Source: Candidatus Zixiibacteriota bacterium (GTDB lineage: Bacteria; Zixibacteria; MSB-5A5; GN15; FEB-12). Taken from it: a DNA stretch of 64,000 bases. The translations under genes and the position numbers were made by a program. Position 1 is the first letter of the stretch; every line of letters begins with the position of its first letter. Shown one piece after another: positions 7,639 through 48,775 of this stretch. The notes under the pieces are model-generated. The model saw only the letters and a program-made list of their open reading frames with translations, ran no database searches and was not told the DNA's origin. The stretch lies in the NCBI GenBank assembly GCA_022571845.1, contig JACZXB010000001.1, positions 459,037-523,036 on the forward strand, written 5' to 3'.

Positions 7639-10600
7639 CAGAATTGTGCCACCACTTCTGTTCGTCCGGTTATGCGGGCAGTAGTTTTATCTGAGTGACG
7701 CCCGCTCAGCCTCAGATTAATACGCATATCTTTCTTGATGCCATAGTTAAACGCGGCAGTCCACAAAATTCCTCTGCTGCCGAATTTGTTGCCTGTCAGC
7801 TGATATGACGGAGCCAAGTTTACGTTATCAAGGCTCTGGGCGTAAAGTTCCAGAGAAGTTCTTATCTCTCCTTTTTTCATCATTCGGATTTTAATTTTTG
7901 TTTCAATTGAGAAGATTTCTGATTTTTCATTAATGGATGACTGCGCCTTGCGAAATGACAGACCTAGCGCATATTCGTTTGAAGAGGCTAACTTGCGCAG
8001 TGTCAGCGCACTTTTGAAACCGTCGATATCTCCGCTGCCTATGAAATAATTATCGCGGTTGCTGCGGAACAATTTTATTTCCTCGACGAAAAAATAATCC
8101 TTTAAGGTTTGCTTCAGAGAAAGAGTCCCGTCAAAATCGCGCCTGATTCTGTCGACACCCGCGATATTTCTAATTTCGATTCTCTGCTTGAGACTAATAT
8201 TGATCACATGGCCGCTTTTTATTTGTATAAGGCGGATGTCGCTGCTGTGGCGACGGTTGTAGACCAGATAAGGCTGAGCGTCGTCTGAATAAAAAGGCAG
8301 AAACCACCAGAATGTGCGTTGACCGTTTTCCAGTAATTCTTCTTCGACTACGCTGTTCAGCTGAATTTGAGCAAACGACCAACTCTTGCTTAAGTGAAAA
8401 CTCTTTTCACCCCGGCGTACTTTTGACTTTTCAGACAGGATTTCCTCCGTCTGAATAAAGTTACCGTCCGGGTCAGGCAGGTAGCGGCCGTTTTCGAAGA
8501 TATACTTGCCCTGGCCGGGTGCAACCTCCAGATAAGTAATACCCCGGGCGTTCCTGGTTTCTTCCGAAAGTGTATAAGAAGAACTTATACTGAGCCTCTT
8601 TTTATTATTAGTGTAGCGCCAGTCGGCTCTCGACAAAAACGACTCCTCTCTGGCGTTTTCCCGGGAGAGCCATTGATAGCCAAGATAAACATTATAATTA
8701 AGGCGGCCGATTGTCCGCCCGGATGACCCAATCAGACGGTTTCTGGTCATCAGCTGCGACCAGCCGTTAGTTAAAGAATCTTCGGTATAATACTCGACTG
8801 TTACTTTTTCTTTGCTGTTTAAGAGCGTGGCAGCGTACCTGTCGTATTTCAAGCCTTGTGGAGCGACATTGTAATCGTTGTTTCTGCTGTCATGCTCATA
8901 TCTTGCCTGAAATTTCAGTTTTCGTATTATAGGAATTTCTAAGTTACTGATATAGCTTTGTGAATTACCGGCGGAGATTGTGCCGTCGGTTAATCTTGAT
9001 TTCGTAGCTCTTATGAGAAAGCTCCCCGATAGCAGATTTTCAAATTCGATATCAGTTTTGACCGTGATTTTATTGGCAGAGAAGTTGTTATCATAATTGA
9101 GTCTTCCATAAGATGGTGACAGTTTTAAAAAACTAAATGGCGAGAGCGTTGCATTGGTTTCTATTAATCTTTCATCACTGTCCGCCTTAAACGCTTTTGG
9201 CAATAAGTAATGACGGCCGAAATCTGCTGGGTTGATTCTTGAATCTGAAGAATATGCAGCCTCTTTGAAACGGGCCGTGACAGACAGATTGTTCTCCTGT
9301 CCGTTCCAGTTAAAAGTCTTTCTGGAGCGGAGATTCGCCAGTAGTCCTTCGTTGTCAGAATCGTCAAGCGCAGAAAACTGATTCTTGTCGTAGCGTGAAA
9401 AGTTTATTTCGGCCTGTACCTCGCCGACAATTCTGTTTTGCAGGCCCAGACTGGCAGAGTAATAATTTTTTTGCTCTGGTGCGGACAGCTTTACTACTGG
9501 CAGATACTCCCCCTTGCCACTGCCGGCATATTGGTACTGCTCTCCCCCGACAAATAGATAATCCCCTTGTCCTGCGCCAACATACGAAAAGGAAATTTTA
9601 TAGTCGCCGTTGCCCTGACCTGCAAATTGGTAAAGGCTATCCGGTAAACTGTCTGTTACCAGCAGGTAACTTCCGGCGCTGTCCAATAAGACCCCAGACC
9701 TAAAAGCGTTTTCAATATTGTCACCAACCGCAGAGAGCAGTTGTAAGTCAGAGTTTGATAGTTCTCCTGTTTGAGGCTGGTCTTTGGAGTCACCTTCGCG
9801 ATACCATTCTACGGCAAAATTAAAAACAGAGTCGCCATATTGGTAGCTGCTGGCGGCGCTGAAGAGCTCTGTTTTATAGGCTGTTAGCAGCGGTTCATAG
9901 TCAATTTCTATTCTGCTGCGACTGTCTATTTGATTTTTGACTGAAAATGTAATTCTTCCGCTGGCATAATCCATGGTGTAATCTTTGTCCGCACCCCTGC
10001 TAAGTTTTCGTCCGTCCAGCCAGATGTTTTCTGAATTTGGCACGATCGACGATGCGCTCTTGCTTGCTCCAATTTGATAGGGACCCTGAACGCCGTCCAG
10101 TCCGTTAAATGTCTCTGTCTGAAATCTTCCTTTGGGCCGACCTGCAACAGCGCTATAACTGAAGTTGCCAGTTTTCAGGTCTGCGGCAACCCCCGACAGT
10201 TGTTTATTCATCCACTGAGATTTACGAAATCCTCGACTAATTTGAATATCACCAATCTGCGCCAGAAAAGACCGGGACTCGAGCCTGAGATTTATCTTAT
10301 CCAGTTCCTCAAGGCGGCTGTTGGCCGTACCGTACGAGGGATTAAAGCCGCGGTCAGATATTGAACCTGATATTGTTAAGTTTTCTGTTAAGTCCCCGGC
10401 TATGTTCAAATCCAGCGATTGACCAAATTCTGAAACCCCGGCCGACTGCGTAGAGAACCGGAAAGTCTTGGCGCCGGAGATATTTATATCACTTAACTTC
10501 GCAGCCGAAGAAACGCTGCGATTATTAAACACACTCTCCGGTTTTGCTCTTGATAAAAGCGGCTGTATCTCCGGCGGCTGCTGGCCGAATGATTTTGCCA

Positions 10601-36051: not shown

Positions 36052-37248
36052 TTAGATTTTTCCAATGATGTCGAACATTGGCAGATACATAGCTATCAAT
36101 ATACCACCAATGACAATACCCATAAATACAATAATGATTGGCTCTATTATAGAAGTCAGAGCAGTTACAGCTTCATCCACTTCTTCGTCATAGAAATCTG
36201 CAATCTTGCTGAGCATGTCATCCAGGCCACCTGTCTTTTCACCAACAGCAATCATTTGAGTGACCATTGGAGGAAAAACTCCAGATTCTTTCAGCGGGCC
36301 GGTAATCGTATCACCTTCGGCGATTGACAGAACTGACTTGTTTATCGCGTTTGCGATAACCACGTTACCTGCGGTTTTAGCAGTAATCTCCATAGCTTCA
36401 ATAATTGACACACCAGACGATAGCAGGGTTCCCAAGGTACGAGTAAACCTTGCCACCGCAGATTTTCTAATCAAGTTTCCAAATATTGGTGTCATAAGCA
36501 TGAACTTATCAAATAGAAGCGCACCAGTCGGAGTTTTCTTCCACCATAAAAGACCGACAACAGATCCTATCGAACCGACTATCAGGTAAAGAAAGTAGTC
36601 TTGCAAGAAATGCGAAATTCCCAAAACATACTGAGTAGGCATCGGCAGTTCCGCGTTTAGCCCTCCGAACATCTTAGCAAAGACAGGAACGATAAACGTC
36701 AACATACCAACTGTTACACCAGCGGCCACTACTACGATAACGGACGGATAGACCATGGCGCCTTTTACCTTACGAATCAGCTGGTCTGATTTTTCGCGAT
36801 ATGCTGCCAAACGCATAAGAATGACATCCAGTGCACCACCGACCTCACCTGCCTGTACCATATTTGAATAGAGCTGGTCAAATACTTTGGGATGGCGTGC
36901 CAGAGCATCGGCCAGAGTAGCACCGCCCTGTACACCTTCTTTTACCTGTGTGATAACCTTAGCGAGTTCAACACTATCAGTCTGAGACGCCATGATTTCC
37001 AAGCATTGGACCATGGGCAGCCCGGCGCCAATCATGGTAGCAAACTGGCGGGTAAACCGGGATATATCTAAGCGACTTATGCCGGTTCCGAATTTTATGT
37101 TTAGGTCCGGAGCTTTCCTGGTTATCGAGGTAACCAGAATACGGTTCTGCCTTAAAACACGCTCAAGATCCTCTTTGCTTTTCGCTTTAAGCGAGCCCTG
37201 GACTGGTGCTCCGGCTAATGTTTTTCCTTTGTATTCAAAAACTGCCAT
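36052..37248 (-). CDS. pilC: Type IV pilus platform protein PilC (GspF family)
   Basis: It shows the duplicated T2SS-F architecture with three TM segments and motifs such as GEVGGALD and GEKTGGLDDML. Confidence 0.9.
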   Translation of the reverse strand: MAVFEYKGKTLAGAPVQGSLKAKSKEDLERVLRQNRILVTSITRKAPDLNIKFGTGISRLDISRFTRQFATMIGAGLPMVQCLEIMASQTDSVELAKVITQVKEGVQGGATLADALARHPKVFDQLYSNMVQAGEVGGALDVILMRLAAYREKSDQLIRKVKGAMVYPSVIVVVAAGVTVGMLTFIVPVFAKMFGGLNAELPMPTQYVLGISHFLQDYFLYLIVGSIGSVVGLLWWKKTPTGALLFDKFMLMTPIFGNLIRKSAVARFTRTLGTLLSSGVSIIEAMEITAKTAGNVVIANAINKSVLSIAEGDTITGPLKESGVFPPMVTQMIAVGEKTGGLDDMLSKIADFYDEEVDEAVTALTSIIEPIIIVFMGIVIGGILIAMYLPMFDIIGKI

Positions 37249-37275
37249 TTACTTAGCCTCTTTCAACCTGCACAA

Positions 37276-38373
37276 CTAACTGAATGCAGGAGATCTTTGA
37301 ACTTTACTTTTCTGGAGCATTTCCGTCAACTCCTGAGTTGAACCGCTATGCGCCATTGCATCGTTTATTGTAATTTTGCCGGTCTCGTATAATTCTGCCA
37401 GTGATTGATTCATTGTCTTCATGCCATATTTTTGCCCGGCCTGTATCATGGAATACAGTTGATGAACTTTATCATCACGTATCAGTGCCCGAATAGCAGG
37501 CGTTACCACCAATATTTCCATGGCCAACACACGTCCGCCGCCAATTTTGGGAATCAACGTCTGTGATACTATCGCCTGAAGAGTGAACGAAAGCGTAACC
37601 CGTACTTGCTCCTGCTGATTTGCGGGAAAAGAATCTACTATTCTGTTGACAGATTCTGCAGCAGAGTTTGTATGCAATGTAGCAAAAGCAAGGTGTCCGG
37701 TCTCTGAAATTGATAGCGCCGACTCAATTGTCTCCAGATCTCTCATCTCACCCACCAGTACTACATCTGGGTCTTCCCTTAACGCGTATTTTAGAGCTGT
37801 GGCGAAAGAGGCTGTGTCAGAATACACCTCGCGCTGGTTAACCAGAGATTTCTTATGGCGATGCAGGTATTCAATCGGGTCTTCTATGGTAATTATATGA
37901 ACGGCTCTTTCTCTGTTAATTTTGTCAATCACAGACGCCAGGGATGTTGATTTCCCTGAACCGGTGGGTCCGGTAATGAGTACCAGCCCGCGAGGAAGAT
38001 CTGCAAAATCCGCGATTACTTTGGGCAATCCGAGCTCTTCAAACGTCTTTACTTCATAAGGAATCTGCCGCAGTACCACTGCAACGTTGCCTCGCTGCAT
38101 GAACATATTGGCGCGAAACCTGCTCATCTGCTCAATTCCGAATGAAAAATCCAGTTCGGAGTTTTGTTCAAATTTGAGCTTCTGCTTTTCGTTGAGCATC
38201 GTATAAGCTATCTTCTTGGTATCTTCACTTGTCAGCGGGTCATAATTCAGAGGCTGAAGCTTTCCATCGACCCGGACGACCGGAGGAGCCCCGACAGTAA
38301 TATGTAAATCAGAAGCTCCCATCTTGAACATTTCTTCAAGCAGTTCACGCAGACCTACCATGGTTTTCCCCAT
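37276..38373 (-). CDS. pilT: Twitching-motility retraction ATPase PilT
   Basis: The N-terminus contains GASDLHITVGAPPVVRVDG. Walker A is GPTGSGKST. Other motifs are VGEMRDLETI and ATLHTNSAAESVNRI. Confidence 0.9.
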   Translation of the reverse strand: MGKTMVGLRELLEEMFKMGASDLHITVGAPPVVRVDGKLQPLNYDPLTSEDTKKIAYTMLNEKQKLKFEQNSELDFSFGIEQMSRFRANMFMQRGNVAVVLRQIPYEVKTFEELGLPKVIADFADLPRGLVLITGPTGSGKSTSLASVIDKINRERAVHIITIEDPIEYLHRHKKSLVNQREVYSDTASFATALKYALREDPDVVLVGEMRDLETIESALSISETGHLAFATLHTNSAAESVNRIVDSFPANQQEQVRVTLSFTLQAIVSQTLIPKIGGGRVLAMEILVVTPAIRALIRDDKVHQLYSMIQAGQKYGMKTMNQSLAELYETGKITINDAMAHSGSTQELTEMLQKSKVQRSPAFS

Positions 38374-38502
38374 ATTTAAACGGTTTAATCGGCTCTTTGG
38401 ATACTTACTATTTATCGGTAAAAAACGAAGGTTCCTTGAGTTTTATTTGTAGAATCAGGGCTGTAAGTTGCTGAAAGACAAAGCCCTACAATAGCGATAT
38501 TT

Positions 38503-40203
38503 TTATATGACAGACGCCGTATTGGCGAAGACCTCATCAATGCTGACCAGACCCTGCTTCATCTTTTCAATAGCAGACATGCGCAGGCTGTACATACCTT
38601 CATCCAGGGCCGTCTTTTGAATTTGAGCATCGCTGCCTCTATCAAGAATCAGCTTTTCAATAGCTTGGGATATAGGCATGATTTCAAATATAGCTGTTCT
38701 GCCCGACTGTCCGGAATCACCGCACTCGTCGCAGCCAGTTCCTTTGAAAGCTCTTAGATTTGACAAGCAGATTGACGGTACGCCGAGACTCTCTACTTGA
38801 TCTTTAGTCAGATTGATCTCCGTTTTACAGTTCTGGCAGATTTTTCGAACCATTCTTTGTGCCAATATTAATTTTGTGGCCGAAGCTACCAGATAAAACG
38901 GTACATCCATATCCATCAAACGGTTAATAGATGACGGAGCATCATTAGTATGCAAGGTGGAAAAGACAAGGTGACCGGTAAGAGCTGCGCGAATGGCTAT
39001 TTCTGCTGTCTCGCCGTCACGAATTTCTCCAAGCATTATAATATCCGGGTCCTGTCGCAAAAACGACCTGAGGGTATTTGCAAATGTTAGACCTATATCG
39101 GATTTGACAGCGACCTGATTGATGCCATCGAAGTTAAATTCAACGGGGTCTTCGGCTGTCATAATATTAACGTCCACAGTATTGATTGTTTTTAAGGCAG
39201 AATACAAAGTCGTAGTTTTACCGGAACCCGTCGGTCCGGTAACCAAAATTATGCCATATGGCAGGTGAACAGCTCTTCTGAAACTATCGAGATCTTCGGT
39301 TCTAAATCCGAGCTTGGTCATATCGACCATCAAAGCCATCGGGTCCAGGATTCGCATGACAACTTTTTCTCCGAATATCGTTGGCAGACAAGAAACACGA
39401 AGGTCTACTGTTCTTCCGGCGATTTTGACTTTTACACGGCCGTCCTGAGGCAGACGACGTTCGGATATATCCAGCTCTGCCATAATTTTAATACGTGAAA
39501 TAATCGCCGCCCTGTACTTGAAAGGCAGTGGCGGCAGTTCTCGTAAATCACCGTCTACACGGTAGCGGACACGAATCCGCTTTTCATAGGTTTCAAGGTG
39601 AATATCAGAGGCTCCTATTCGAATAGCATCGGCAATTATTGAATCAACCAGTTTTACCAGCGGCTTATCCTGAATGGCAGAAAGCAGGTCAGACTCATCA
39701 GGAGCCGACTCACTTGAGACTACTTCTAAACTATCATCCGCATCAAGGCTGGCAACAATGTCAGAAAGCGCTCCTGTATCTCTATACTGTGCTTCGATAG
39801 CTTTTTCGATGGCGTTTTCGGGTGAAATGACTGGCTGAACGGTGCAGCCAGTTATAAATTTTATAGCGTCTAATACATAAACATTATTGGGATCACCTAT
39901 AGCGACCAGAAGGTTTTTGCCAATTTTCGAGATTGCTATGACTTTGAACTTGCGGGCGATATCCAGCGGAATCATCTTGACGATATCCGGATTCAGCTCA
40001 ATGTCACTAAGCTTAAGGGCGCCAATCTTCAAGTGCTTTCCGATAAACTGCGCTATGTCATATTCTGACTCAACAGCGCCGATTTTGACCAGGGCAGCTT
40101 CAAATTTCTCGCTCTCGCTTTTGACCAGCTTTAGCGCTTTGTCGGCCTGTTCCTGAGTAATCTTGCCGTGTTTTACTAGTATGTTGCTGAGTTCTATAGC
40201 CAT
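38503..40203 (-). CDS. pilB: Type IV pilus assembly ATPase PilB (GspE family)
   Basis: It has an N-terminal T2SSE_N-like domain, GASDIHLE, Walker A GPTGSGKTT, LGEIRDGETA, and the tetracysteine CQNC..CDEC. Confidence 0.9.
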   Translation of the reverse strand: MAIELSNILVKHGKITQEQADKALKLVKSESEKFEAALVKIGAVESEYDIAQFIGKHLKIGALKLSDIELNPDIVKMIPLDIARKFKVIAISKIGKNLLVAIGDPNNVYVLDAIKFITGCTVQPVISPENAIEKAIEAQYRDTGALSDIVASLDADDSLEVVSSESAPDESDLLSAIQDKPLVKLVDSIIADAIRIGASDIHLETYEKRIRVRYRVDGDLRELPPLPFKYRAAIISRIKIMAELDISERRLPQDGRVKVKIAGRTVDLRVSCLPTIFGEKVVMRILDPMALMVDMTKLGFRTEDLDSFRRAVHLPYGIILVTGPTGSGKTTTLYSALKTINTVDVNIMTAEDPVEFNFDGINQVAVKSDIGLTFANTLRSFLRQDPDIIMLGEIRDGETAEIAIRAALTGHLVFSTLHTNDAPSSINRLMDMDVPFYLVASATKLILAQRMVRKICQNCKTEINLTKDQVESLGVPSICLSNLRAFKGTGCDECGDSGQSGRTAIFEIMPISQAIEKLILDRGSDAQIQKTALDEGMYSLRMSAIEKMKQGLVSIDEVFANTASVI

Positions 40204-40278
40204 ACCTATTGCCTGTACTTAGCTCCTGTCCATTTACAGCTTAAACAAGTCTACGAGTTTTGGTATAAGCGTTAGTGC

Positions 40279-40770
40279 TTAGTCCTGAAAAATATCGTCC
40301 AGCTTTTCCTGAGCACGCTCGACAAAATCACCTTCAACAGCGCTCTTACGGCCTGAGGCAGACTTCTCTTTTATCTCCTCAAAAATCTTAGTTAAGCCGT
40401 TAGCGGTTTCCTTGGCATATAGGCGGACCATTCCGATTGTTGTACGGTCGTCAAAAATAACTACTAAAATTGAACGATCTCCGACTATAGACATGTGGAT
40501 ATGGTCTTTCTTGCCTTGATGAAATAAAACCGAAAACTCCGGTTCGCCGACCAGCCTTGCTATCTCTTTTGTCGAAGCAAACGAACCGGCCAGAAGGGCT
40601 GCCAGCGCAGTAGTATCAAGAGAGTGCGTGAACCCCAGACGGGTAATAAGGTGGCCGTCTTTATCGACCAACAGAGCACACTTTGCTTCTGCTCCTTTAA
40701 GCATCTTGGATATCAGAGCTTCTATCTGATTTATTTCTTCTTCGTAAATTATCAGGCTATCATCAGACAT
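40279..40770 (-). CDS. mglB: MglB (Roadblock/LC7 GTPase-activating partner of MglA)
   Basis: It is colinear with Myxococcus MglB, with motifs YEEEINQI, LLVDKDGHLI, LDTTALAALLAG, ILVVIFDDRTTIGMVRL and LTKIFEE. Confidence 0.85.
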   Translation of the reverse strand: MSDDSLIIYEEEINQIEALISKMLKGAEAKCALLVDKDGHLITRLGFTHSLDTTALAALLAGSFASTKEIARLVGEPEFSVLFHQGKKDHIHMSIVGDRSILVVIFDDRTTIGMVRLYAKETANGLTKIFEEIKEKSASGRKSAVEGDFVERAQEKLDDIFQD

Positions 40771-40787
40771 TCCTGCCTCCTAAATAT

Positions 40788-41987
40788 TTATTTAATTCCA
40801 AACAATTTCTTAAATATGCTGCGCTTCTTCTGCTCTCGTCGTTTAAGCGAAGGCGCCATCTTGGGAGCGTGTGTACCATAATCTTCCATAGCGGCCGAAT
40901 CGCCTGAGGCTGAATCACTACTTGTGATATTTTTTTCACTTTGATTCATGCCGGGATACGGTCTATCATCCATTTCAGAATTTTCCTCTCCTGAAGGGTC
41001 CGCCTGTTTTGCGCCCGGATAAGGACGATACGCAGGAATTCTGTCGTCAGTCGCCGATGTCGCCGGCGTATCGGCTGTAGCCACTTCGGCTGATGGTTGG
41101 CCCTGAACCTGAGGAGTAGCAGTCGGCGCTGCATAGGGATCGTTACCTAAGGGTTGAACCGAAGGATCGGCCAGCGGCCCATCTGGGTCTGGCTGACCGG
41201 CTGGCGGGGCTACAACTTGAGCAGAAGGCTCTGCTACAGCCGGCTGTGATACCGCAGGTGCCTGAGGCGCCGCAGGCACCTGAGGTGCCGCAGGTGCCTG
41301 AGGTGCCGCAGGTGCCTGAGGTGCCGCAGGTGCCTGAGGTGCCGCAGGTGCCTGAGGTGCCGCAGGTGCTTCGACAGCTGTTTTCGAAGTATTGCTTGAT
41401 ACCTGAGAATTTTTAGCTTTTTCCAGGACAAGTTTGATAATCAGTTTGAGCGTATCAAAAACTCCAGTTCCCACAGTAGCTGAAGCCTCAAAAGTAGGGA
41501 AATTATAAGTATTAAGCTTTTGATCCATCTCTTCCGTTGTCATTATATTGGGAAGGTCTCGTTTGTTATATTGAATGACCAGTGGCAGCTGACTAATATC
41601 GTAACCATATTCTTTGAGGTTATCTATCAGGTTCGCCAAAGCTTCAATATTTTCGTCCATTTTGTCAGGCTGACTGTCAGCAACAAATACAACGCCGTCT
41701 ACACCCCGCAAAACTAATTTACGAGTAGCATTGTAGTAGACCTGGCCGGGCACAGTATAGAGCTGAAACTTGGCCTGAAATCCATTGATTGTACCAATAT
41801 TAATTGGTAGGAAATCAAAATAGAGAGTCCGGTCTGCTTCAGTCGCCAGAGATATAAGATCTCCACGTGTTGTGCTGGGCACTTTGGTGTGGACATATTG
41901 CAAGTTGGTAGTCTTGCCCGATAAGCCCGGACCATAATAGACAATTTTGCAGCAGACCTCTCGCGCCGAGTAGTTTATTGATACCAT
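40788..41987 (-). CDS. mglA: MglA-family Ras-like GTPase with a roughly 200-aa proline-rich C-terminal extension
   Basis: Residues 1-195 are near-colinear with M. xanthus MglA ([68 protein letters not shown]). An (APAAPQ)n low-complexity tail follows. Confidence 0.9.
41252..41368 (-). repeat. 18-bp in-frame tandem repeat, about 6.5 copies, encoding (APAAPQ)n
   Basis: The plus-strand unit CCGCAGGTGCCTGAGGTG is repeated head to tail. Four central copies are identical, and the first two carry 1-2 substitutions. Confidence 0.95.
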
Positions 41988-42013
41988 TTACTTCTTCCTG
42001 CTATGCTTAGTTT

Positions 42014-42355
42014 TTAACTTACCGTTTTTAATCGTGATATTGCGTTCTTAATTTCAAGTCGGATTAGACCAATATTCACTTCTTTATCTGTAGTTACTAC
42101 CAAAATGCCGAGTCCGGCATCGCTGAAAAATAGCTTGGCGTCATCAGCTTCTATTGTAACATGTTTTAAAGGGCTGCTCTGGAGACGCTTCAATGATTTG
42201 TGGATGTTGGCTGTTATCGATGCCGCCAGGGCTCCGATTGTGTCGTCTTCCACATTTTCCTGCAGGTTTGCCGCAATAACGATACCATCATTGCCGACCA
42301 CCATTGAGCCGGTAATGCCAGTTGTTTTGTTAAGTTCACTTAGTATTTCATGCAT
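42014..42355 (-). CDS. Stand-alone Roadblock/LC7 domain protein (MglC-like)
   Basis: The 113-aa product has GITGSMVVGNDGIVIA..DTIGALAASI..FFSDAGLGILVVTTDKEVNIGLIRLEI. It overlaps the upstream gene by 8 nt. Confidence 0.75.
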   Translation of the reverse strand: MHEILSELNKTTGITGSMVVGNDGIVIAANLQENVEDDTIGALAASITANIHKSLKRLQSSPLKHVTIEADDAKLFFSDAGLGILVVTTDKEVNIGLIRLEIKNAISRLKTVS

Positions 42356-43331
42356 ATGATTTCTCCATTGCCGGGCGCAGCATCTCGCTGTACCTCTCGG
42401 ACATATATTTCTTAACCATTTCCATTGCTTGATTTATGCGAATATTTAATAAATCATCACTATGTCTTTCTGCTATTACCATAAGACAATATGACTCTTC
42501 ATAGCAGAGGACTACCCTGTCATTACTTAACTGAAATTCTACTCTTTCCGGACAGCCGTAGCTAAGGAAGTTCATGCTTCCGGCTCCGTCTGCCTTAATA
42601 AGCAAAGCAAAGGGAGCAACATCCTCTGCAATTATTCCGCCGCGTGTAAAGTTCGATAACAGCAGACCTTCATGGTCAACTACTGCGGCCAGCTTAACAG
42701 AGCTATGTTCACCAATATATCTGGTAGCCTTATCAAATCCCTGAGCGTCTCCGCCAATCACTGGTGACTCTGTTGCAGGTCGGTTTTCGAGACCTGATTG
42801 ATTCTGAACCGGACTGGGAGGCGGAGAATCGGGTCTGCTAGCGTTTTTTTCTTTAGTAACTACAAAGGTAGAAGTTCCGGTCTCTACTGAATCAGCTGTG
42901 ATAATATCTGACGGCCGTGGGCGACGAATACGCGGTCGACTGAAAAATATCTCATCCATAGTGCTCTTGATTATGAACTGGGTTGCAAAAACCTGGAAAA
43001 GCAAACTCGGCAAATATCCGTACATCCCCATAGAAAAGGCAACACCGCTGCTTATGTTATAAAAGGCAGAAAGCAAAACAGAAAATATTGAACTTATTAG
43101 CAATCTGTAGCCCAGCCCAATAAAAACGATTGCTACCATTTGCATGGCGTTACCCTGTCTGTATAAAACGAAAGTAAGCAGCAAATAGAAAAGAAGCTCC
43201 AGGACAATATTAGTCGAAGAATAGTTCTGCAGAAATGTTCCGAGGTTTTCCGGATACAATATCAGCGGCACGACCAATAAGATTAGCGAATACAACAGTA
43301 GTCGTTTTGCAGCTTCAACTGATAAGTTCAT
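42348..43331 (-). CDS. Polytopic membrane protein with a C-terminal Roadblock/LC7-like domain
   Basis: It has about 5 TM helices in the first 130 aa, then a Pro/Ser linker, then KLAAVVDHEGLLLSNF..APFALLIKA..VVLCYEESYCLMVIAERHSDDLLNIRINQAME. Confidence 0.6.
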   Translation of the reverse strand: MNLSVEAAKRLLLYSLILLVVPLILYPENLGTFLQNYSSTNIVLELLFYLLLTFVLYRQGNAMQMVAIVFIGLGYRLLISSIFSVLLSAFYNISSGVAFSMGMYGYLPSLLFQVFATQFIIKSTMDEIFFSRPRIRRPRPSDIITADSVETGTSTFVVTKEKNASRPDSPPPSPVQNQSGLENRPATESPVIGGDAQGFDKATRYIGEHSSVKLAAVVDHEGLLLSNFTRGGIIAEDVAPFALLIKADGAGSMNFLSYGCPERVEFQLSNDRVVLCYEESYCLMVIAERHSDDLLNIRINQAMEMVKKYMSERYSEMLRPAMEKSYA

Positions 43332-44212
43332 ATAGCACCTGCTGTTTTTGCATAATTTGACATCAGTCCGTCAATTTTCATGCGAACGTTGCCCAAATTA
43401 GCTTTTTTACCTGCCACGAAAATAAAAATACCTTTAGAGTTCTGATTTATATAAAAAGTTGATTCTGCTGCTTCTATAAGAACGTTTTGCACGTTGCCAA
43501 AGGAGTTATTTACAAGTTCACTGCTGAGCATTTTCCAGATTTCTGACAAAACAGCCCCGCAGTCATTTACTTCCAGAGGACTTCTCCATTCAGAATCAGC
43601 TACCAGACCGTCCTGGCTAACAAGCATAGCGCCTTTTAGTCCTTTTATTGTCAGAGCTTCGGTAAGCATGTCATGCAGTTCAAATGGCTTGGCTGGCTTA
43701 GTTTCTGTTTCATCTATCCTGTCAGCTGAATCTGAGCTGCTGCCTGACGGGGCTCCGGTAATTATGGTCTCGTCCAAATAGGCATTTTGTTCTTCCGGAA
43801 TTTTCTGTGCAATCTCCAGTAGTTTTTGAATCTGCGGATTTTCGGGGTCGCGGCTGAGGAGTTCCTTCAAGAGCTTTATGGCATGCGAAAATTCGCCTTT
43901 ATAGATGTAGATTTCTGACAGTAGAAGTTCAACTGAGCGGGTACGACCGTCAAGATCAGCTGCACGTTTGGCTTCAATCTCTGCCCAGTCATATTGACCA
44001 CGGTCGAGATTTATTTTAGACATAACGACATGAGCAGAGCCGTAATCGTCATGCACTTTCAGTCCGTTTTTACACACTTTAAATGCCAGGTCCAAGTCTC
44101 CCTTTTTGCGATATGCCTCCGCCAAGGCGGCAAAAATCTGTGAGTTAGGATCAGAGTCTAAAATTCTCTGACACTTCTCTATTCTATCATCTAATTCTGA
44201 TACAGTCGCCAT
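43328..44212 (-). CDS. TPR repeat + Roadblock/LC7-like fusion protein
   Basis: N-terminal TPR-like repeats read AEAYRKKGDLDLAFKVCKNGLKV and SEIYIYKGEFSHAIKLLKELL. The C-terminal domain reads LKGAMLVSQDGLVADS..GAVLSEI..IFIFVAGKKANLGNVRMKI. It overlaps the downstream gene by ATGA. Confidence 0.65.
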   Translation of the reverse strand: MATVSELDDRIEKCQRILDSDPNSQIFAALAEAYRKKGDLDLAFKVCKNGLKVHDDYGSAHVVMSKINLDRGQYDWAEIEAKRAADLDGRTRSVELLLSEIYIYKGEFSHAIKLLKELLSRDPENPQIQKLLEIAQKIPEEQNAYLDETIITGAPSGSSSDSADRIDETETKPAKPFELHDMLTEALTIKGLKGAMLVSQDGLVADSEWRSPLEVNDCGAVLSEIWKMLSSELVNNSFGNVQNVLIEAAESTFYINQNSKGIFIFVAGKKANLGNVRMKIDGLMSNYAKTAGAI

Positions 44213-44326
44213 AAAAACAAATACTCATTGTAACTTGTTTTGCCATAAGTTCTTGCGCAATTAAAAATTCCGCCTTGCGCCCACTTTATTTCAAGCCAGA
44301 TTTAACGCCAAATAACAAGTAAATTC

Positions 44327-44698
44327 TCAGCTTAACGTATTTCTGGCGCTAAAAACCCCAAATGCAAAAAGTCCCGACATCAGAAGCAGCATTAATGGAG
44401 CAAATAGCTCCGGCAGTGTAAAAAACTCCATCGCCGAAGCGATACTTGCCAGCTGGCTTATAGCCAGAAGCACGAAACCAAGGAAAAACATCTGCCAGCT
44501 CCTGCTCAGATAACCACCTTTTACCTGTCCCAGTACCTGGAAAGAACCAAACAAACAGGCTCCGGCAACTATCAATACGAACAGGCTGAACATCGTCGGC
44601 GGACTGGCTATAACTGCCAGGTTGGCGGCCTGGACATCACTGCCCAACCCTGCACTAATTAAAATTCCAATAAATAAACACTTTTTCATCTTAATCAC
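44327..44698 (-). CDS. Small membrane protein (signal peptide + 3 TM)
   Basis: The signal ends DVQAA and three hydrophobic helices follow. It overlaps the DUF4388 gene by 8 nt. Confidence 0.55.
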   Translation of the reverse strand: MIKMKKCLFIGILISAGLGSDVQAANLAVIASPPTMFSLFVLIVAGACLFGSFQVLGQVKGGYLSRSWQMFFLGFVLLAISQLASIASAMEFFTLPELFAPLMLLLMSGLFAFGVFSARNTLS

Positions 44699-45896
44699 CT
44701 CGTACCATATGAACTACTTTTTCTGCCCTTTTTAAGGATCTATAGTAATCGTTTTCTATTCCATATTTCTTGACTAAATCTCGCTTCTTTGCCAGCGGCT
44801 CGGATATTTCTCTTTTTACTCCGTTAAGCGTGCGCCGGAATGGACCTTCGCCCAAAATCATGAATACATATTCCAGTTGTTCGGTGAGCATGCCGGTTAA
44901 ACCGCTAAGCAATACATGCACCCGGATATGAGTAGGAATTGATCTGACTGCGCTAAGGAATTTTTCCTGTGAGGGCATCAATTCTGAGCCCGGATCTACC
45001 CCCGGAAAATAACTCAAAATTCCTGAGCGATACTGAGAAGCAAAATTTGAAAACCTGGTGTTGTTCTCTCCCAGTAAATCCTCTACCGTAGTACGAATCC
45101 TGTAAAAGGCGTTGCTGAACAGATAAAAGATTAGAGACAGAACCGCTTCTTCTTCATCCTCTTTTTCTTCAGAACTTTCTTCCCGTTCGCCAGTTACTTC
45201 TATCAAATTTCCTAATATCAACTTGTAAACTGCACGACAAGTGACGAACTCTCCAAAAGGCGAAGCTTGTATCATTTCCGGCAAAGTTCTTTCGCCATTT
45301 ATCATAGACAGTACCCGAAATTCTTCCATAGTCAGTCTGACTTCATCACTGTTTGTCTTGGGTGAAGCGACTACAGACAACATCATTTCATCTGGCGGCA
45401 GCACCTTTTGAATTTCCAGCCATTCATCAATACGGCGGGTACCTTCCATGACGATACTCATGGTGGTGAGCTCTACTAAAAAAGGTGCGTTTTTGGGACT
45501 GGTGCCTTCGTGGAAAACGAAGTTTCCTTCCTGCCAAGAAAACAAATTATAGACTATTTCTTCAATTTGGAATTTCAGACACTCTGCGATTTCATCTTTT
45601 TCAAAAAGATTCATATCCACCAGTGTGGTACCCAGCTGTCTGCCGGTCTGCTTGTGCAGAGTTATGGCACGCTCTAACTGGTCCTTGGAAAGTTTTCCCT
45701 TACGCAGCAGCATATTCCCCAGCAAATCTTCGCTAGTATTTAATGACGAAGCGTAAATGATGTTGCCGTTTTTAAACGCTACTTCCTTTTGCCTGGCACT
45801 GGTGTTTACTTCCAGAACTCCTGTCTTCTTGCCAGTTGACAATAACTGCAGGATATCCGAGAATGAGACTGTTTTTAAATTCCCTGACAAACTCAT
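44691..45896 (-). CDS. DUF4388 (PATAN-like) domain protein
   Basis: The N-terminal hallmark is GNLKTVSFSDILQLLSTGKKTGVLEV....VAFKNGNIIYASS. It is the first gene of the MglA block. Confidence 0.7.
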   Translation of the reverse strand: MSLSGNLKTVSFSDILQLLSTGKKTGVLEVNTSARQKEVAFKNGNIIYASSLNTSEDLLGNMLLRKGKLSKDQLERAITLHKQTGRQLGTTLVDMNLFEKDEIAECLKFQIEEIVYNLFSWQEGNFVFHEGTSPKNAPFLVELTTMSIVMEGTRRIDEWLEIQKVLPPDEMMLSVVASPKTNSDEVRLTMEEFRVLSMINGERTLPEMIQASPFGEFVTCRAVYKLILGNLIEVTGEREESSEEKEDEEEAVLSLIFYLFSNAFYRIRTTVEDLLGENNTRFSNFASQYRSGILSYFPGVDPGSELMPSQEKFLSAVRSIPTHIRVHVLLSGLTGMLTEQLEYVFMILGEGPFRRTLNGVKREISEPLAKKRDLVKKYGIENDYYRSLKRAEKVVHMVRGD

Positions 45897-46000: not shown

Positions 46001-46669
46001 TCAAAACTGAGAGACTTGGAAACTACTGTCAGTTCGGTTCTTAAGCTTGATCCGACAGCCTCCGGTTTGCCCAATATCCGTAACTATTTTCTGGTATTTT
46101 TCAGCAGGCAAAAAACCAGCGTCTTTCTGTTCAATTCTTGAACAGACCAGCTGCTCTAAGTTGCTTTGACTTTCGATAATTTTTTCAATTTCCGAGCGGG
46201 CGATCTTACTTCTTCCGCAATAAATAACCAGTGACTGCTTTGCTAAGGAAACTTTATTATCCCCGGACAGAATATTCTCATTTGCTATCAATATCGATGA
46301 ATTATCCAATTCAAGCTCTATTAGATTTTTCGAGGGATAATAGCCCGGCAATAATTTATTAGAATTCTCTGCCGAAAATGACTCAATCGTGATTGTGCCG
46401 TAATTTGCAAAAAGTGTCCGGCTGATGTCCGAAAAGCTCTTTTCTATCCTGGCGTCTACTATGACAGATTTGGCCTGATAGCTAAGGCAGAGTCTGTAAA
46501 TGTCATCGATAGCTCCATACTCCGATGACATCACAAAAACCTGGCCGAGCCCCTCCACACCTAATTCATCAAAGGCCGAGCTGAAAATTCGTTCATCTAT
46601 TGGGTACGGTTTCCGAGTCAAGCCGCTGATTATCAAGTCTGGCACCTGGCTTTGATTCTGATAAATCAA
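46001..46669 (-). CDS. Hypothetical protein, possibly a degenerate C-terminal (MBL-like) remnant of ComEC/Rec2
   Basis: Only a TTG start is available. The frame stays open upstream to the stop at 46736 and there reads IDIFNIPGGTAILIY..LIISG, which resembles the DVGQGDAxLI..LIDxG entry of the ComEC lactamase domain. The C-terminus TDIGQTGGCRIKL resembles TDxxGAI. The metal ligands are not conserved. Confidence 0.4.
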   Translation of the reverse strand: MIYQNQSQVPDLIISGLTRKPYPIDERIFSSAFDELGVEGLGQVFVMSSEYGAIDDIYRLCLSYQAKSVIVDARIEKSFSDISRTLFANYGTITIESFSAENSNKLLPGYYPSKNLIELELDNSSILIANENILSGDNKVSLAKQSLVIYCGRSKIARSEIEKIIESQSNLEQLVCSRIEQKDAGFLPAEKYQKIVTDIGQTGGCRIKLKNRTDSSFQVSQF

Positions 46670-46762
46670 AATTGCAGTGCCACCGGGAATGTTAAAAATA
46701 TCGATTGTGCAAAAGTCATTAGAGCGGGAGCGTAGCTACCCCCGCTCAGATTCAATTATTAG

Positions 46763-46791
46763 TTGACATTTGGTGGTGCTCTGATTATATA
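46763..46791 (+). promoter_or_regulatory. Sigma70-type promoter (TTGACA-N17-TATATA)
   Basis: There is a perfect -35 at 46763-46768, a 17-nt spacer, and a -10 TATATA at 46786-46791. Confidence 0.55.
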
Positions 46792-46797
46792 CCAAAT

Positions 46798-46888
46798 GTA
46801 AGGGTCATAGAACCTTTGCATTGGAAACTCCTTTCTTTTCGCTTGAGTGTTTCCAAATTTGGCCGGTAGCTCAAACTACCGGCTTTTT
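46798..46888 (+). ncRNA. Candidate small RNA of about 90 nt, bounded by a promoter and a terminator
   Basis: It starts about 7 nt after the -10 and has no ORF (ATG-TAA only). Internal hairpins are CCAAATG..CATTGG and GGAAACTC..GAGTgTTTCC. It ends in the terminator at 46861-46888. Confidence 0.35.
46861..46888 (+). terminator. Intrinsic terminator
   Basis: The sequence is gGCCGGTAGctcaaaCTACCGGC followed by TTTTT. Confidence 0.65.
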
Positions 46889-47034
46889 ATAATATCTGTA
46901 CACCCCAAATTTAAGTCAAGTACTTTTTAAATTAAGTTACAATTTATATTCCCCACAAGTCGGGCATATTAACTGATTTGGCGGTAGCTGTAAGGGCTTC
47001 AACTAAAAGCAGTTACGTGCCCAACAGATTTTAC

Positions 47035-47062
47035 TTGACAAAGCCCGATAAATATGTAGCTT
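47035..47062 (+). promoter_or_regulatory. Possible sigma70-type promoter for the HTH-like gene
   Basis: It reads TTGACA-N16-TAGCTT, where the -10 keeps only T1, A2 and T6. It lies about 40 nt upstream of the GGAGG-ATG. Confidence 0.35.
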
Positions 47063-47102
47063 TGCGTTGTCATTACTTAAGCGAAAAACAGGAGGACTTA
47101 CA

Positions 47103-47669
47103 ATGGTAAAAGGTATCGGAAATGACCCTATGGTAAAAGCTCTGACTAAAGAGCTTGAAGAAATACTTCGTAGGGCGGCAGAGATTAAAAAATTCATCAA
47201 TGACACTTACGTTTATCGGGGAGCTTCTCCACTCTATACAGATGTTGATTATGTCCCCGCTGGCGGTACACTAAACCTTGCTCACGATCAATATTTTGGT
47301 AAAGGGCTGGCTACTGCTGGAAAAGAATTTCTTCAAGCTAAGGGACGGGCTGCCCCCTCTGACGAAATTTTTGAAGCTTTCAATAAAGGAGGCTTCGAGT
47401 GGCCTACAAACTGGAAAGAACGAGACAGATTAAAGAATCTTGCAATATCACTAAGCAAGAATCGCTATGATTTTGTTATTGTTCGAACAAGCAAAGGCCA
47501 AGCGTATGGATTGTATGAATTCTATCCTGAAAAAATGAAAGAAAGGGAACGGAAAAAACAGGGGAAATCTAATGAAACTGAGTCTGCCAATAATGGCTCC
47601 CCCGCAACAATTGAAAAGGTTGAATCAACAGAAACTAAGATTGAAGAGAGTAAAAATGAGGGGAATTAA
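47103..47669 (+). CDS. Hypothetical DNA-binding protein with a HARE-HTH-like winged-helix core and a Lys/Glu-rich tail
   Basis: The ATG at 47103 lies 7 nt after GGAGG. The track ORF starts at an upstream TTG. The segment AGKEFLQAKGRAAPSDEIFEAF...YDFVIVRTSKGQAYGLYEFYPE follows the HARE-HTH pattern (compare RpoE ..WGLRSWYP). This assignment rests on pattern recall only. Confidence 0.55.
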   Translation: MVKGIGNDPMVKALTKELEEILRRAAEIKKFINDTYVYRGASPLYTDVDYVPAGGTLNLAHDQYFGKGLATAGKEFLQAKGRAAPSDEIFEAFNKGGFEWPTNWKERDRLKNLAISLSKNRYDFVIVRTSKGQAYGLYEFYPEKMKERERKKQGKSNETESANNGSPATIEKVESTETKIEESKNEGN

Positions 47670-47699
47670 TTTGACTTTAAAGGCTGTATAGTCTACTTA

Positions 47700-47960
47700 G
47701 TGAACGGGCGGGTAATGCCCTGCCTCCCAAAATTATGTTGTCCGTCACACAACGGAGAATAGGGCGGCTCCAGTTGTGACGGAGCCCAAGTAAGCAGTGA
47801 AGCTTACCTGTACAACATAATGGAGGTGCTAATGCAAAGTACCCCAAAGGACAATCTTGCCAAGATTGTCTTGGGCTCAATCACTCGGATAGTGATAGAG
47901 CTTATTCGGAAACTGTTTTAGTAGAAAGAGGCAGGGTAACCCCGCCTATAATTTTGGGAA
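47700..47960 (+). ncRNA. Candidate structured RNA (multi-helix, family not recognised)
   Basis: Nested perfect helices are 47707-47726/47928-47946, 47732-47741/47812-47821, and hairpins at 47741-47783, 47790-47807, 47843-47875 and 47880-47896. An alternative 11-bp pairing joins 47726-47736 and 47948-47958. I chose the plus strand because a hairpin with a T7 run follows at 47996-48020. Confidence 0.45.
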
Positions 47961-47995
47961 ATTCGCTCCTTTCAGTATCTTACAATACCAATTTC

Positions 47996-48020
47996 ACTTG
48001 ACTCATTCAAGTCTTTTTTT
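47996..48020 (+). terminator. Weak intrinsic terminator
   Basis: The sequence is ACTTGActcatTCAAGT, then c, then TTTTTTT. The stem is 6 bp and AT-rich. Confidence 0.4.
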
Positions 48021-48128
48021 GCTAAAAGTCAAACTATTTTTTGCTCCTACCAAAAAATATGTCGGCCAAATTCCCTTAACTCTTAGCAATCCCCATACCT
48101 ATTGTACACTTTTTGCCCCAAAAATAGA

Positions 48129-48156
48129 TTGACAGAGATGGGATAGCCAGTATTCT
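48129..48156 (+). promoter_or_regulatory. Possible sigma70-type promoter (TTGACA-N16-TATTCT)
   Basis: The -35 is perfect. The -10 ends 7 nt before the ATG at 48164, which implies a leaderless mRNA. Confidence 0.4.
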
Positions 48157-48163
48157 TGAGATT

Positions 48164-48424
48164 ATGCAGGTAGTGCTCAATAAAGCTCAGAAAGTGATTC
48201 TTATAATCAGCTTAGCTCTGATAGCTTTCTCTTTTCTATTCCCAACGTGGGAATTTCGCCGAACGGAAATCACCAGAGTCTTAAAGAGGGTTGATTATCA
48301 ATTTATTCTTGCTCCCCCCAAATATAAGACACATCCGATGCAAATAGACTATGGCCGTATGCTGATCCAGATAGTGGTTATCGTAATTGTCGGGGGTGGA
48401 TTGATTCTTGTTAAGAAGTCTTAG
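48164..48424 (+). CDS. Small two-TM membrane protein, unknown function
   Basis: The 86-aa product has TM1 VILIISLALIAFSFLF and TM2 LIQIVVIVIVGGGLILV. There is no Shine-Dalgarno sequence. Confidence 0.5.
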   Translation: MQVVLNKAQKVILIISLALIAFSFLFPTWEFRRTEITRVLKRVDYQFILAPPKYKTHPMQIDYGRMLIQIVVIVIVGGGLILVKKS

Positions 48425-48439
48425 CAATTCTCAAAAATC

Positions 48440-48775
48440 TCAAAATAGCCCACTACCAAATATTTGATAGGTTTGCTTCTCCGAAATAAATCGGGCAACA
48501 TGATTTGAACCAAAATTATAGGTTTTGAGACCGTAATGAAAACCGCTGAAAAAAAAGAGACAAAGAGCAAATAAGATAATCGAAAACCGGGCTGACTCTT
48601 TTTTAAACAGAACCAGTCCGCCAATAAACGAAATCAGACAGAGCAGCAGGAAGAGCCAGCCTGGCGGGCGGACAAAATCTGTGAACAGAATTCCGGCCAC
48701 TACCGGAATCAGAAAAAAAAGACCAGGATATTTTTTTAGCACAACTACATACGGAAAATAATTTTCAGGATCCAC
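48440..48775 (-). CDS. Truncated ComEC/Rec2 N-terminal (DUF4131-like) fragment
   Basis: LKKYPGLFFLIPVVAGILF plus two more TM helices and ..HVARFISEKQTYQIFG resemble the start of ComEC. The ORF stops after 111 aa. The GTG start overlaps the murJ end, and an alternative GTG lies at 48742. Confidence 0.45.
   Translation of the reverse strand: MDPENYFPYVVVLKKYPGLFFLIPVVAGILFTDFVRPPGWLFLLLCLISFIGGLVLFKKESARFSIILFALCLFFFSGFHYGLKTYNFGSNHVARFISEKQTYQIFGSGLF

Follow-up and report, generated by a model that had tools for sequence, protein, structure and literature searches.

The stretch analysed here (hereafter the window) comprises 64,000 nucleotides from Candidatus Zixiibacteriota bacterium (contig JACZXB010000001.1 of assembly GCA_022571845.1, positions 459,037 to 523,036) and encodes on its minus strand a long form of the polarity GTPase MglA, here called mglA-long, in which the G domain continues into a tail of about 200 residues. 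Our analysis suggests that this tail combines a flexible spacer with a C-terminal amphipathic membrane anchor, which would tether MglA at the inner membrane beside the co-encoded type IV pilus genes, a reading to which we give a probability of roughly 0.65. The informative part of the tail is a near-invariant 25-residue C-terminal module with a MinD-like sequence, rather than the 18-bp tandem repeat found in its proximal part. The original prediction, which saw in the tail a spacer or docking region, pointed in the right direction, but the MinD-like module and its conservation throughout the family go beyond what it had envisaged.

mglA-long is an uninterrupted open reading frame (ORF) for a protein of 399 aa, with an AGGAAG ribosome-binding site upstream of its ATG and a TAA stop at 40788–40790; mglB starts 17 nt past this stop with its own AGGAGG site. 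The proposal that an MglA G domain (aa 1–195) is fused in frame to a low-complexity tail of about 200 aa, rich in Pro, Ala and Gln, was borne out in all respects: the 399 codons are open, the domain matches MglA structures in the PDB, no frameshift separates it from the tail, and the close homologs with an intact C-terminus, far from stopping near residue 195, all reach a shared C-terminal motif. The GC content at third codon positions (GC3) is equal in the G domain (0.41) and the tail (0.40), which indicates that the tail is native coding sequence, its higher overall GC content arising from codon positions 1 and 2 of Ala and Pro codons. No second MglA is encoded in the 64-kb window. Public databases list the long MglAs as "GTPase domain-containing protein", "signal recognition particle receptor subunit beta" or "MglA".

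On all the sequence criteria tested, the G domain belongs to MglA family Group 1, and its catalytic motifs are intact. In a phmmer search against the PDB, residues 3–193 aligned without gaps to the Myxococcus xanthus MglA structures 5ymx and 6h17 (E = 2e-79, 63% identity), and were also matched to Thermus thermophilus MglA 3t12 (E = 5e-68). The domain contains the P-loop GPGLSGKT, the pair Arg53-Thr54 (intrinsic arginine finger and G2), TVPGQ in G3 and NKRD in G4. In an alignment of 56 homologs D52, R53 and T54 were invariant, as were T78, V79, P80, G81 and Q82 within the segment LYTVPGQVY (aa 76–84). Group 1 has been distinguished by a Thr that replaces the conserved Asp of the G3 motif DxxGQ (Thr78), according to PMC3000849, and by an intrinsic arginine finger beside the G2 threonine (PMC4316618); the window protein carries both traits, and a Roadblock/LC7 gene for MglB, expected within four genes, lies immediately downstream. 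Where it departs from the family as surveyed is in length. The reference survey of prokaryotic small GTPases took only single-domain proteins of 150–240 aa, left out those above 240 aa and is silent on C-terminal extensions of MglA (PMC4316618), so that the window protein, with 399 aa, and its homologs, with 327–411 aa, fall outside its range. Size is not a homology criterion, and we consider the whole protein a long variant beyond that length range; the size limit would exclude long MglAs and thereby explain why the subfamily has gone unnoticed.

Canonical Group 1 MglAs, such as those of M. xanthus, T. thermophilus and Bdellovibrio, share with the window protein the G domain (63% identical in M. 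xanthus), the Thr-for-Asp TVPGQ motif, the intrinsic arginine finger, the catalytic Gln, an adjacent Roadblock-type MglB and an association with type IV pilus genes. However, they are bare soluble domains of 195–197 aa (PMC4316618) that reach the pole through protein partners, whereas the window MglA adds its tail of about 200 aa with a conserved, anchor-like C-terminal module. Gene order also differs, since mglB lies downstream of mglA in the window and upstream of it in the canonical arrangement, and two or three extra Roadblock-type genes together with a membrane-protein gene precede the window mglA.

Among 5.8 billion proteins searched, 7,956 matched at E ≤ 1e-10, and the best 120 served for the statistics of the tail. 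All 120 measured 258–433 aa, 117 of them 327–411 aa, and none was close to 195 aa. A total of 118 ended in PxMAPSL[KR]RR-x3-KKRGFFKRLFGIK-COOH, located at the extreme C-terminus, and right alignment of the termini gave the consensus P-x-M-A-P-S-L-[KR]-R-R-x3-K-K-R-G-F-F-K-R-L-F-G-I-K-COOH, in which most of the last 13 positions were more than 90% conserved, though overall identity to the query was only about 55%. This survey of C-terminal extensions in MglA homologs, which had been advised together with the original prediction, reveals the tail as a deeply conserved family trait. Within the PxMAPS element, P and M were invariant and A and P at least 90% conserved (alignment A1); PxM is retained in divergent homologs too, despite the drift of their anchor sequence. 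When 1.84 billion cluster representatives were searched exhaustively with a hidden Markov model (HMM) of the C-terminal profile, the motif proved to be confined to the very end of MglA tails or of their N-terminally truncated fragments, the few long proteins among the weak matches being unrelated internal matches. This search yielded 49 matches, mostly gene fragments; clustering at 50% collapses full-length proteins, and the result gauges specificity, not family size. A PDB sequence search with the 27-residue C-terminal consensus gave zero matches at E ≤ 10. One database protein, P0016 (433 aa), matches the window G domain at 99% identity along half of its length and then continues into a SufB/SufD-type domain (PF01458) with no tail; encoded on a contig of 1,966 bp, it is probably a chimeric assembly.

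The last 26 residues of the tail carry a net charge of about +9, and an AlphaFold2 (AF2) prediction for the C-terminal 40 residues of the window protein gave a short helix at aa 391–396 with a predicted local distance difference test (pLDDT) score of about 80. The C-terminus of Escherichia coli MinD, read from the K-12 genome record NC_000913.3, is EEKKGFLKRLFGG, and the family consensus KKRGFFKRLFGIK has K.GF.KRLFG in common with it (KKGFLKRLFGG), that is, 8 of 12 positions in an ungapped alignment. The C-terminal segment of MinD is an experimentally established amphipathic-helix membrane-targeting sequence, transplantable to other proteins (PMC8155659). In both proteins the segment is short and sits at the extreme C-terminus, and in MglA, as in MinD, it would place basic residues beside a hydrophobic face; in the MglA family it ends at the last residue not only in the 118 homologs mentioned above but also in all strong matches of the exhaustive search. 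The settings are different, since MinD is a ParA/MinD ATPase whose helix directly follows the folded domain and binds via ATP-driven dimerisation, whereas MglA is a Ras-like GTPase whose predicted helix follows a disordered linker of about 180 aa and is accompanied by an extra polybasic stretch. As the host proteins are unrelated, the resemblance of their termini is most likely convergent. The spacing of residues is retained even where the sequence is not: among 24 distinct, albeit related, termini of the amphipathic type taken from species-representative genomes, 21 kept hydrophobic residues at positions i, i+1, i+4 and i+5 flanked by Lys or Arg, against 1.8 expected from shuffles, and termini as drifted as FFLFRWF, GFLWRWIQKF, GFFAWLFGKR, GFIKKLFNK and SFLSKFLNK still show this pattern. 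Conservation of pattern over sequence is what would be expected of a lipid-binding helix.

Between the G domain and this module lies a linker with the opposite evolutionary behaviour. The window linker (aa ∼194–373) consists of 22% Ala, 18% Pro, 9% Ser and 9% Gln, and those of the family are likewise rich in Ala, Pro, Ser, Glu, Thr and Gln and net acidic, with a median charge of −6 against about −15 in the window protein. Whole tails measure 134–240 aa (median 164), and the 110–215 residues that precede the C-terminal module cannot be aligned across homologs, with the sole exception of an RP[YF]PG island. The R-P-[YF]-P motif of this island occurs in 119 of the 120 best homologs, in two copies in 33 of them, including the window protein. 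AF2 on the full-length protein assigned no secondary structure to aa 200–391 (pLDDT 44–59); this model was weak even in parts of the G domain and was used only for the lack of predicted structure in the tail. RP[YF]PG was also considered as a signature of all tail types and was discarded as such, being limited to the core subfamily of Zixibacteria/Ignavibacteria type and absent from the tails of transmembrane (TM) type and from most divergent tails of amphipathic type.

The distribution of tails was followed in a GTDB scan with one genome per species, in which the best 80 MglA loci were kept and the ORF was extracted from each. Tails with a basic amphipathic terminus were present in 25 of the 80 loci (Zixibacteria, Ignavibacteria, a few Terriglobales, Fibrobacterota and Chitinispirillales), and the bare form of 192–211 aa in 22 (Gemmatimonadota and Eisenbacteria). 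Another 18, comprising 17 Planctomycetota and one "uncultured bacterium", had a low-complexity tail of 118–219 aa with a hydrophobic end. Nine carried other tails, mainly in Fibrobacter, six of which end in ...ELRPYVPKKK or a close variant, and in the remaining six loci the ORF was cut by the contig end. In the hydrophobic-ended group (L024, L025, L027, L031, L034, L035, L040, L043, L044, L047, L049, L056, L059–L063 and L071, with the MglA ORF starting near position 10001 in most of them) the 19-residue Kyte-Doolittle mean reached 1.64–3.26, with a median of three Lys/Arg in the 12 residues before the segment and a median of five residues after it, so that these ends correspond to a textbook tail anchor with a predicted TM helix. 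The maximum for the window tail was 0.48, which places it outside the tail-anchored TM type. The Planctomycetota proteins resemble the window MglA in their G domain (52–67% identical), in the length and low complexity of their tail, and in their neighbours, mostly with a Roadblock gene upstream and almost always with mglB downstream; they differ in the predicted TM end and in the absence of the RPYPG and MAPSLKRR motifs and of pilB/pilT/pilC neighbours. These tail-anchored Ras-like GTPases of Planctomycetota are apparently undescribed. Two predicted membrane-anchoring devices at the same position, after the same type of linker, are the strongest argument for a tail that tethers MglA.

The six Fibrobacter loci (L038, L053, L069, L073, L074 and L079) have a tail of 120–138 aa that ends in ...DD[DE]IELRPYVPKKK with no hydrophobic anchor, a terminus only loosely similar to the RPYPG island of the window family. 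In the MglA tree, metagenome-assembled genomes labelled Zixibacteria are intermingled with those labelled Ignavibacteria/Ignavibacteriales, and the tails of L009 (Ignavibacteriaceae) and L010 (Zixibacteria) end identically; either a number of labels are in error or the cluster has been transferred from one of these groups to another.

According to the membrane-tether reading, the protein would be built of three modules, namely a catalytically intact G domain, a freely evolving acidic linker of about 180 aa and the near-invariant 25-residue C-terminal module. The terminal helix would insert into the cytoplasmic face of the inner membrane while its basic residues bind anionic lipids, so that the G domain, on a flexible leash put by a rough polymer-scaling estimate at some 10 nm, could reach membrane-embedded machines. 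The likeliest targets would be the co-encoded pilus motor proteins PilB, PilT and PilC, and the regulators MglB and two or three further Roadblock-type proteins. Tethering would reduce the search from three dimensions to two, in the manner of the hypervariable region and lipid anchor of eukaryotic Ras and Rho. Membrane binding, the functional link to the pilus and the leash lengths are inferred.

Several points weigh against this reading. The match to MinD at 8 of 12 positions holds for the family consensus only, the terminus of the window protein itself agreeing at 5 of 12. No part of the tail has a higher hydrophobic moment than its last 11 residues (0.50, compared with 0.41 in MinD), but this value is not significantly above those of shuffles of the same residues (p about 0.24), and the 21 of 24 termini with the amphipathic spacing constitute a statistic inflated by the relatedness of the sequences. 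A single copy of the MinD membrane-targeting sequence binds weakly (PMC8155659), and membrane binding may hence depend on the polybasic stretch, on clustering or on a partner. The full-length AF2 model has a mean pLDDT of 56, a low overall confidence due to a shallow alignment of closely related sequences. A rough neighbour-joining tree places each anchor type in a clade of its own with the short forms between them; it has no support values and does not establish that the two anchor types were gained independently, being equally compatible with a single origin followed by anchor swapping. Finally, the PxMAPS and RP[YF]PG elements are not explained by lipid binding and are probably protein-binding sites.

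This last point leads to the alternative with most in its favour, though an unlikely one, in which the C-terminal module would be a docking peptide for a protein partner, the tail a leash to that protein, and no lipid-binding helix would be involved. Candidate partners are found in the co-conserved 327-aa membrane protein, a Roadblock or TPR protein, or PilB/PilT; TPR domains commonly bind terminal peptides, and both the 327-aa membrane protein and the TPR protein accompany the KKRGFFKRLFGIK-type tail in 21 of the 22 loci L001–L022. Moreover, the invariant PxMAPS element and the RP[YF]PG island resemble short linear protein-binding motifs, and a near-invariant sequence exceeds what lipid binding needs, for which the pattern alone would suffice. 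However, the terminal 10 residues are nearly those of the MinD membrane-targeting sequence, and divergent homologs keep the hydrophobic spacing and the basic flanks after the sequence itself has been lost. The Fibrobacterota and Chitinispirillales loci retain a basic amphipathic terminus with no 327-aa, TPR, Roadblock or pilB neighbours, and in Planctomycetota a predicted TM segment takes the place of the element. Docking is also compatible with an anchor, as PxMAPS and RPYPG may bind proteins while the terminus binds lipid.

The tandem repeat lies within the linker. Tandem Repeats Finder delimited 6.6 copies of 18 bp at 41252–41369, with 95% matches, zero indels and the consensus CCGCAGGTGCCTGAGGTG. 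In the coding register, five consecutive identical units GCACCTGCGGCACCTCAG (APAAPQ) are followed by a VPAAPQ unit with two substitutions and then by a 10-nt partial unit, in agreement with the original prediction of an (APAAPQ)n block made of about 6.5 copies. The four copies that it had described as central and identical are indeed identical in the plus-strand register, but they lie at one end of the array. Its expectation of variable copy number between strains also proved right. Apart from a few substitutions, the nearest database protein, P0001 (369 aa), is distinguished from the window protein by a single gap of exactly 30 residues, and its contigs L081 and L082, from separate ENA metagenome assembly records, are 97.4–98.8% identical to the window in nucleotide sequence over 8–12 kb, which assigns them to the same species. 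The mglA genes of both contigs are exactly 90 bp (5 × 18) shorter at the array, with 1.5 units left, and more distant relatives, at 72–85% protein identity, have 0–2 units.

The expansion to 6.5 copies thus appears private to this strain, an assembly artefact being the less likely alternative. Were the true allele one of 1.5 copies, the error would touch the repeat only and leave the tail unaffected. It could account for the lack of any record of the exact 399-aa product in any other assembly, while the 369-aa allele has been assembled on three contigs from separate records. An artefact is nonetheless improbable: assemblers tend to collapse short tandem repeats and seldom lengthen them, an array of only 118 bp can be spanned by ordinary reads, the sixth unit has two substitutions and the array stays in frame, and other tails of the family carry tandem repeats of independent origin. 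Two Planctomycetota MglA tails, those of L026 and L064, contain unrelated tandem peptide repeats of their own (GGAAGSDSS and PPQGYGT, respectively), which suggests that the growth of repeats is a normal and recurrent route by which MglA linkers change in length. In-frame slippage or unequal recombination would have added the 30 residues in this strain only, lengthening the leash by an estimated contour length of about 11 nm. As the repeat unit is a multiple of three bases, such changes would alter the length of the tether and not switch the gene on or off. In sum, the repeat is recent and lengthens, apparently in this strain alone, a linker that is hypervariable in any case, and it is minor beside the conserved end of the tail.

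The opposite charges of the acidic linker and the basic terminus suggest another possibility, to which we give little credit, namely an autoregulatory tail whose basic C-terminus would fold back on the G domain or the acidic linker to modulate nucleotide exchange, GTP hydrolysis or access of MglB, with no role at the membrane. A precedent exists in M. xanthus, where the C-terminal helix of MglB regulates MglA allosterically, as stated in PMC6785124, and MglA must accordingly have a surface that accepts regulatory helices. In the AF2 model, however, itself of low confidence, the terminus is not docked on the G domain, and autoregulation leaves unexplained the MinD-like sequence, its extreme C-terminal position and its replacement by a TM segment in Planctomycetota. 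The idea that MglA simply tolerates a stretch of low-complexity sequence without function at its end, as the unalignable and length-variable linker might suggest, is hardly credible and effectively refuted by the presence of the tail in every close homolog and in 22 syntenic loci, by the near-invariance of the 25-residue terminus at about 55% overall identity and by the invariant RPYPG island.

A membrane-tethering tail of this kind would have architectural counterparts among eukaryotic GTPases. Ras, Rho and Rab proteins likewise place a variable flexible region, a polybasic stretch and a hydrophobic anchor at the end of a small G domain, K-Ras4B with its polybasic region and farnesyl group being an example of the Ras-type C-terminus. 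The anchor differs, as it would be a peptide helix here and a TM segment in Planctomycetota; the window tail has zero cysteines and no CAAX box, which leaves no site for prenylation or other lipidation, and the linker is about 10 times as long as the Ras hypervariable region. The likeness is one of architecture only and reflects independent evolution. A second parallel is found in FtsZ, in which a GTPase domain and a variable disordered linker also precede a short conserved terminal peptide for membrane tethering, and in Mycoplasma FtsZ this peptide is a direct amphipathic helix (bioRxiv 10.1101/2023.08.29.555414). FtsZ is nevertheless a non-homologous, tubulin-fold polymerising GTPase, whose peptide usually binds FtsA or ZipA instead of lipid.

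The Ras/Rho/Rab-type architecture is usually held to be a eukaryotic hallmark, and the membrane-anchoring C-terminal extension of Rab proteins has been argued to date from eukaryogenesis (PMC10933270). If the tether reading is true, the same architecture also exists in bacteria, probably by convergence, and the long MglA bears on the evolution of small GTPases. A broader proposal, on which we consider the odds to be even, is that bacteria evolved a design of G domain, hypervariable tail and membrane anchor within MglA, with at least two interchangeable anchor chemistries (a MinD-like helix in the Zixibacteria/Ignavibacteria group and a TM tail anchor in Planctomycetota), a membrane-resident switch wired to the pilus motor and a tether adjusted by repeat slippage over short evolutionary times. 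MglA is the model for bacterial front-rear polarity, a soluble protein that gets to the pole with the help of partners, and a large, conserved subfamily permanently or reversibly tethered to the membrane would, if confirmed, represent a different solution to polarity. Likewise, the fixed cluster of at least 12 genes would offer a simple system in which to study the effects of tether length and membrane confinement on a GTPase switch. We found no description of tailed or membrane-anchored MglA in the full-text literature, in which subscription journals are thinly covered, and the long MglA apparently constitutes a widespread, undescribed form. The features of the gene and its surroundings are collected in Table 1.

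Table 1. Positions in the window of mglA-long, the parts of its product and the neighbouring genes
Feature	Position	Strand	Description and basis
mglA-long	40788–41987	−	399-codon ORF including TAA stop; full-length homologs of 327–411 aa with the same ends
G domain, true MglA type	41403–41987	−	aa 1–195; PDB search and motif residues invariant across 56 homologs
Hypervariable linker	40869–41402	−	aa 196–373; predicted disordered; Ala/Pro/Ser/Gln-rich; net charge about −15
18-bp tandem repeat	41252–41369	−	Encodes (APAAPQ)5-VPAAPQ-APA, aa 207–245; Tandem Repeats Finder; apparently strain-specific in-frame expansion in the linker
Y-R-P-Y-P-G motif	41013–41030	−	aa 320–325, in the linker; R321, P322, P324 and G325 invariant in 56 homologs
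D-R-P-Y-P-G, second motif copy	40950–40967	−	aa 341–346
P-x-M-A-P-S-L-K-R-R element	40836–40865	−	aa 375–384; abuts the putative anchor N-terminally; opens the polybasic stretch
MinD-like basic amphipathic segment	40791–40829	−	aa 387–399; proposed membrane-targeting sequence; family consensus KKRGFFKRLFGIK
mglB	40279–40770	−	163 aa, Roadblock/LC7; Pfam Robl_LC7 E = 1.6e-13
Roadblock/LC7 protein	42014–42355	−	113 aa; Pfam Robl_LC7 E = 7.6e-14; 26 nt upstream of mglA-long
327-aa protein	42348–43331	−	3–4 N-terminal TM-like segments (hydropathy); no family match; co-occurs with the amphipathic-type tail
TPR protein	43328–44212	−	294 aa; Pfam TPR_2 above cut-off; weak C-terminal Robl_LC7, 22.3 bits against a 23-bit cut-off; synteny conserved
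Type IV pilus motor genes	36052–40203	−	pilB-like 38503–40203, pilT-like 37276–38373, pilC-like 36052–37248

In the window, long MglA stands in a cluster of at least 12 genes (36052–45896), and the 22 loci of Zixibacteria and Ignavibacteria with amphipathic tails (L001–L022) have the same order of the 12 window genes tested wherever the contig is long enough, with at least one interior gene missing in three of the 22. The order runs from a DUF4388/PATAN protein, a small ORF, the TPR protein with its weak Roadblock match, the 327-aa membrane protein, the 113-aa Roadblock protein and long MglA to MglB, PilB, PilT, PilC, a PilS-like histidine kinase and an ORF of 595 aa; in the same-species contig L082 the counterpart of this last ORF contains PpiC-type rotamase domains. 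The genes overlap or lie 17–75 nt apart, consistent with one operon, an assignment drawn from spacing and overlaps only; a scan for promoters and terminators over 36.0–46.5 kb gave counts at background. The pilus genes were recognised by their Pfam domains (T2SSE and MshEN for pilB-like, T2SSE for pilT-like and T2SSF for pilC-like), and their order is kept in L001–L022. The window mglB matched the NCBIfam MglB model with E = 1.6e-26 and 93 bits, below the 200-bit cut-off. The single locus of the 22 with no match to the 327-aa protein was L021; we considered this neighbour as a membrane-anchored Roadblock protein and rejected the idea, as neither a BLASTP comparison with the adjacent Roadblock protein nor Pfam at E ≤ 1 gave a match.

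With up to three Roadblock-type proteins per GTPase, one of them a borderline match, the cluster has one more than the MglB/MglC pair of Myxococcus. A counterpart of the 113-aa Roadblock protein upstream of MglA is kept in loci of both the amphipathic-anchor and the TM-anchor type, and most Planctomycetota loci preserve the core of Roadblock gene, mglA and downstream mglB. Where adjacent, mglB lies directly downstream of tailed MglAs, amphipathic or TM (L001–L080), and about 0.5 kb upstream of the short MglAs of 192–211 aa from Gemmatimonadota and Eisenbacteria, as in M. xanthus.

Beyond the cluster, a ComEC-like competence gene of the window (46001–48775) is broken into an N-terminal fragment at 48440–48775 and a C-terminal fragment at 46001–46669, and is intact in the same-species contig L081, where it encodes 766 aa with DUF4131 and Competence domains. 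The ∼1.7 kb between the two fragments cannot be aligned to L081 and holds two ORFs on the opposite strand, one of 200 aa (47067–47669) with no solid Pfam match and a hydrophobic one of 86 aa (48164–48424). This segment may be an insertion or replacement that inactivates the competence gene.

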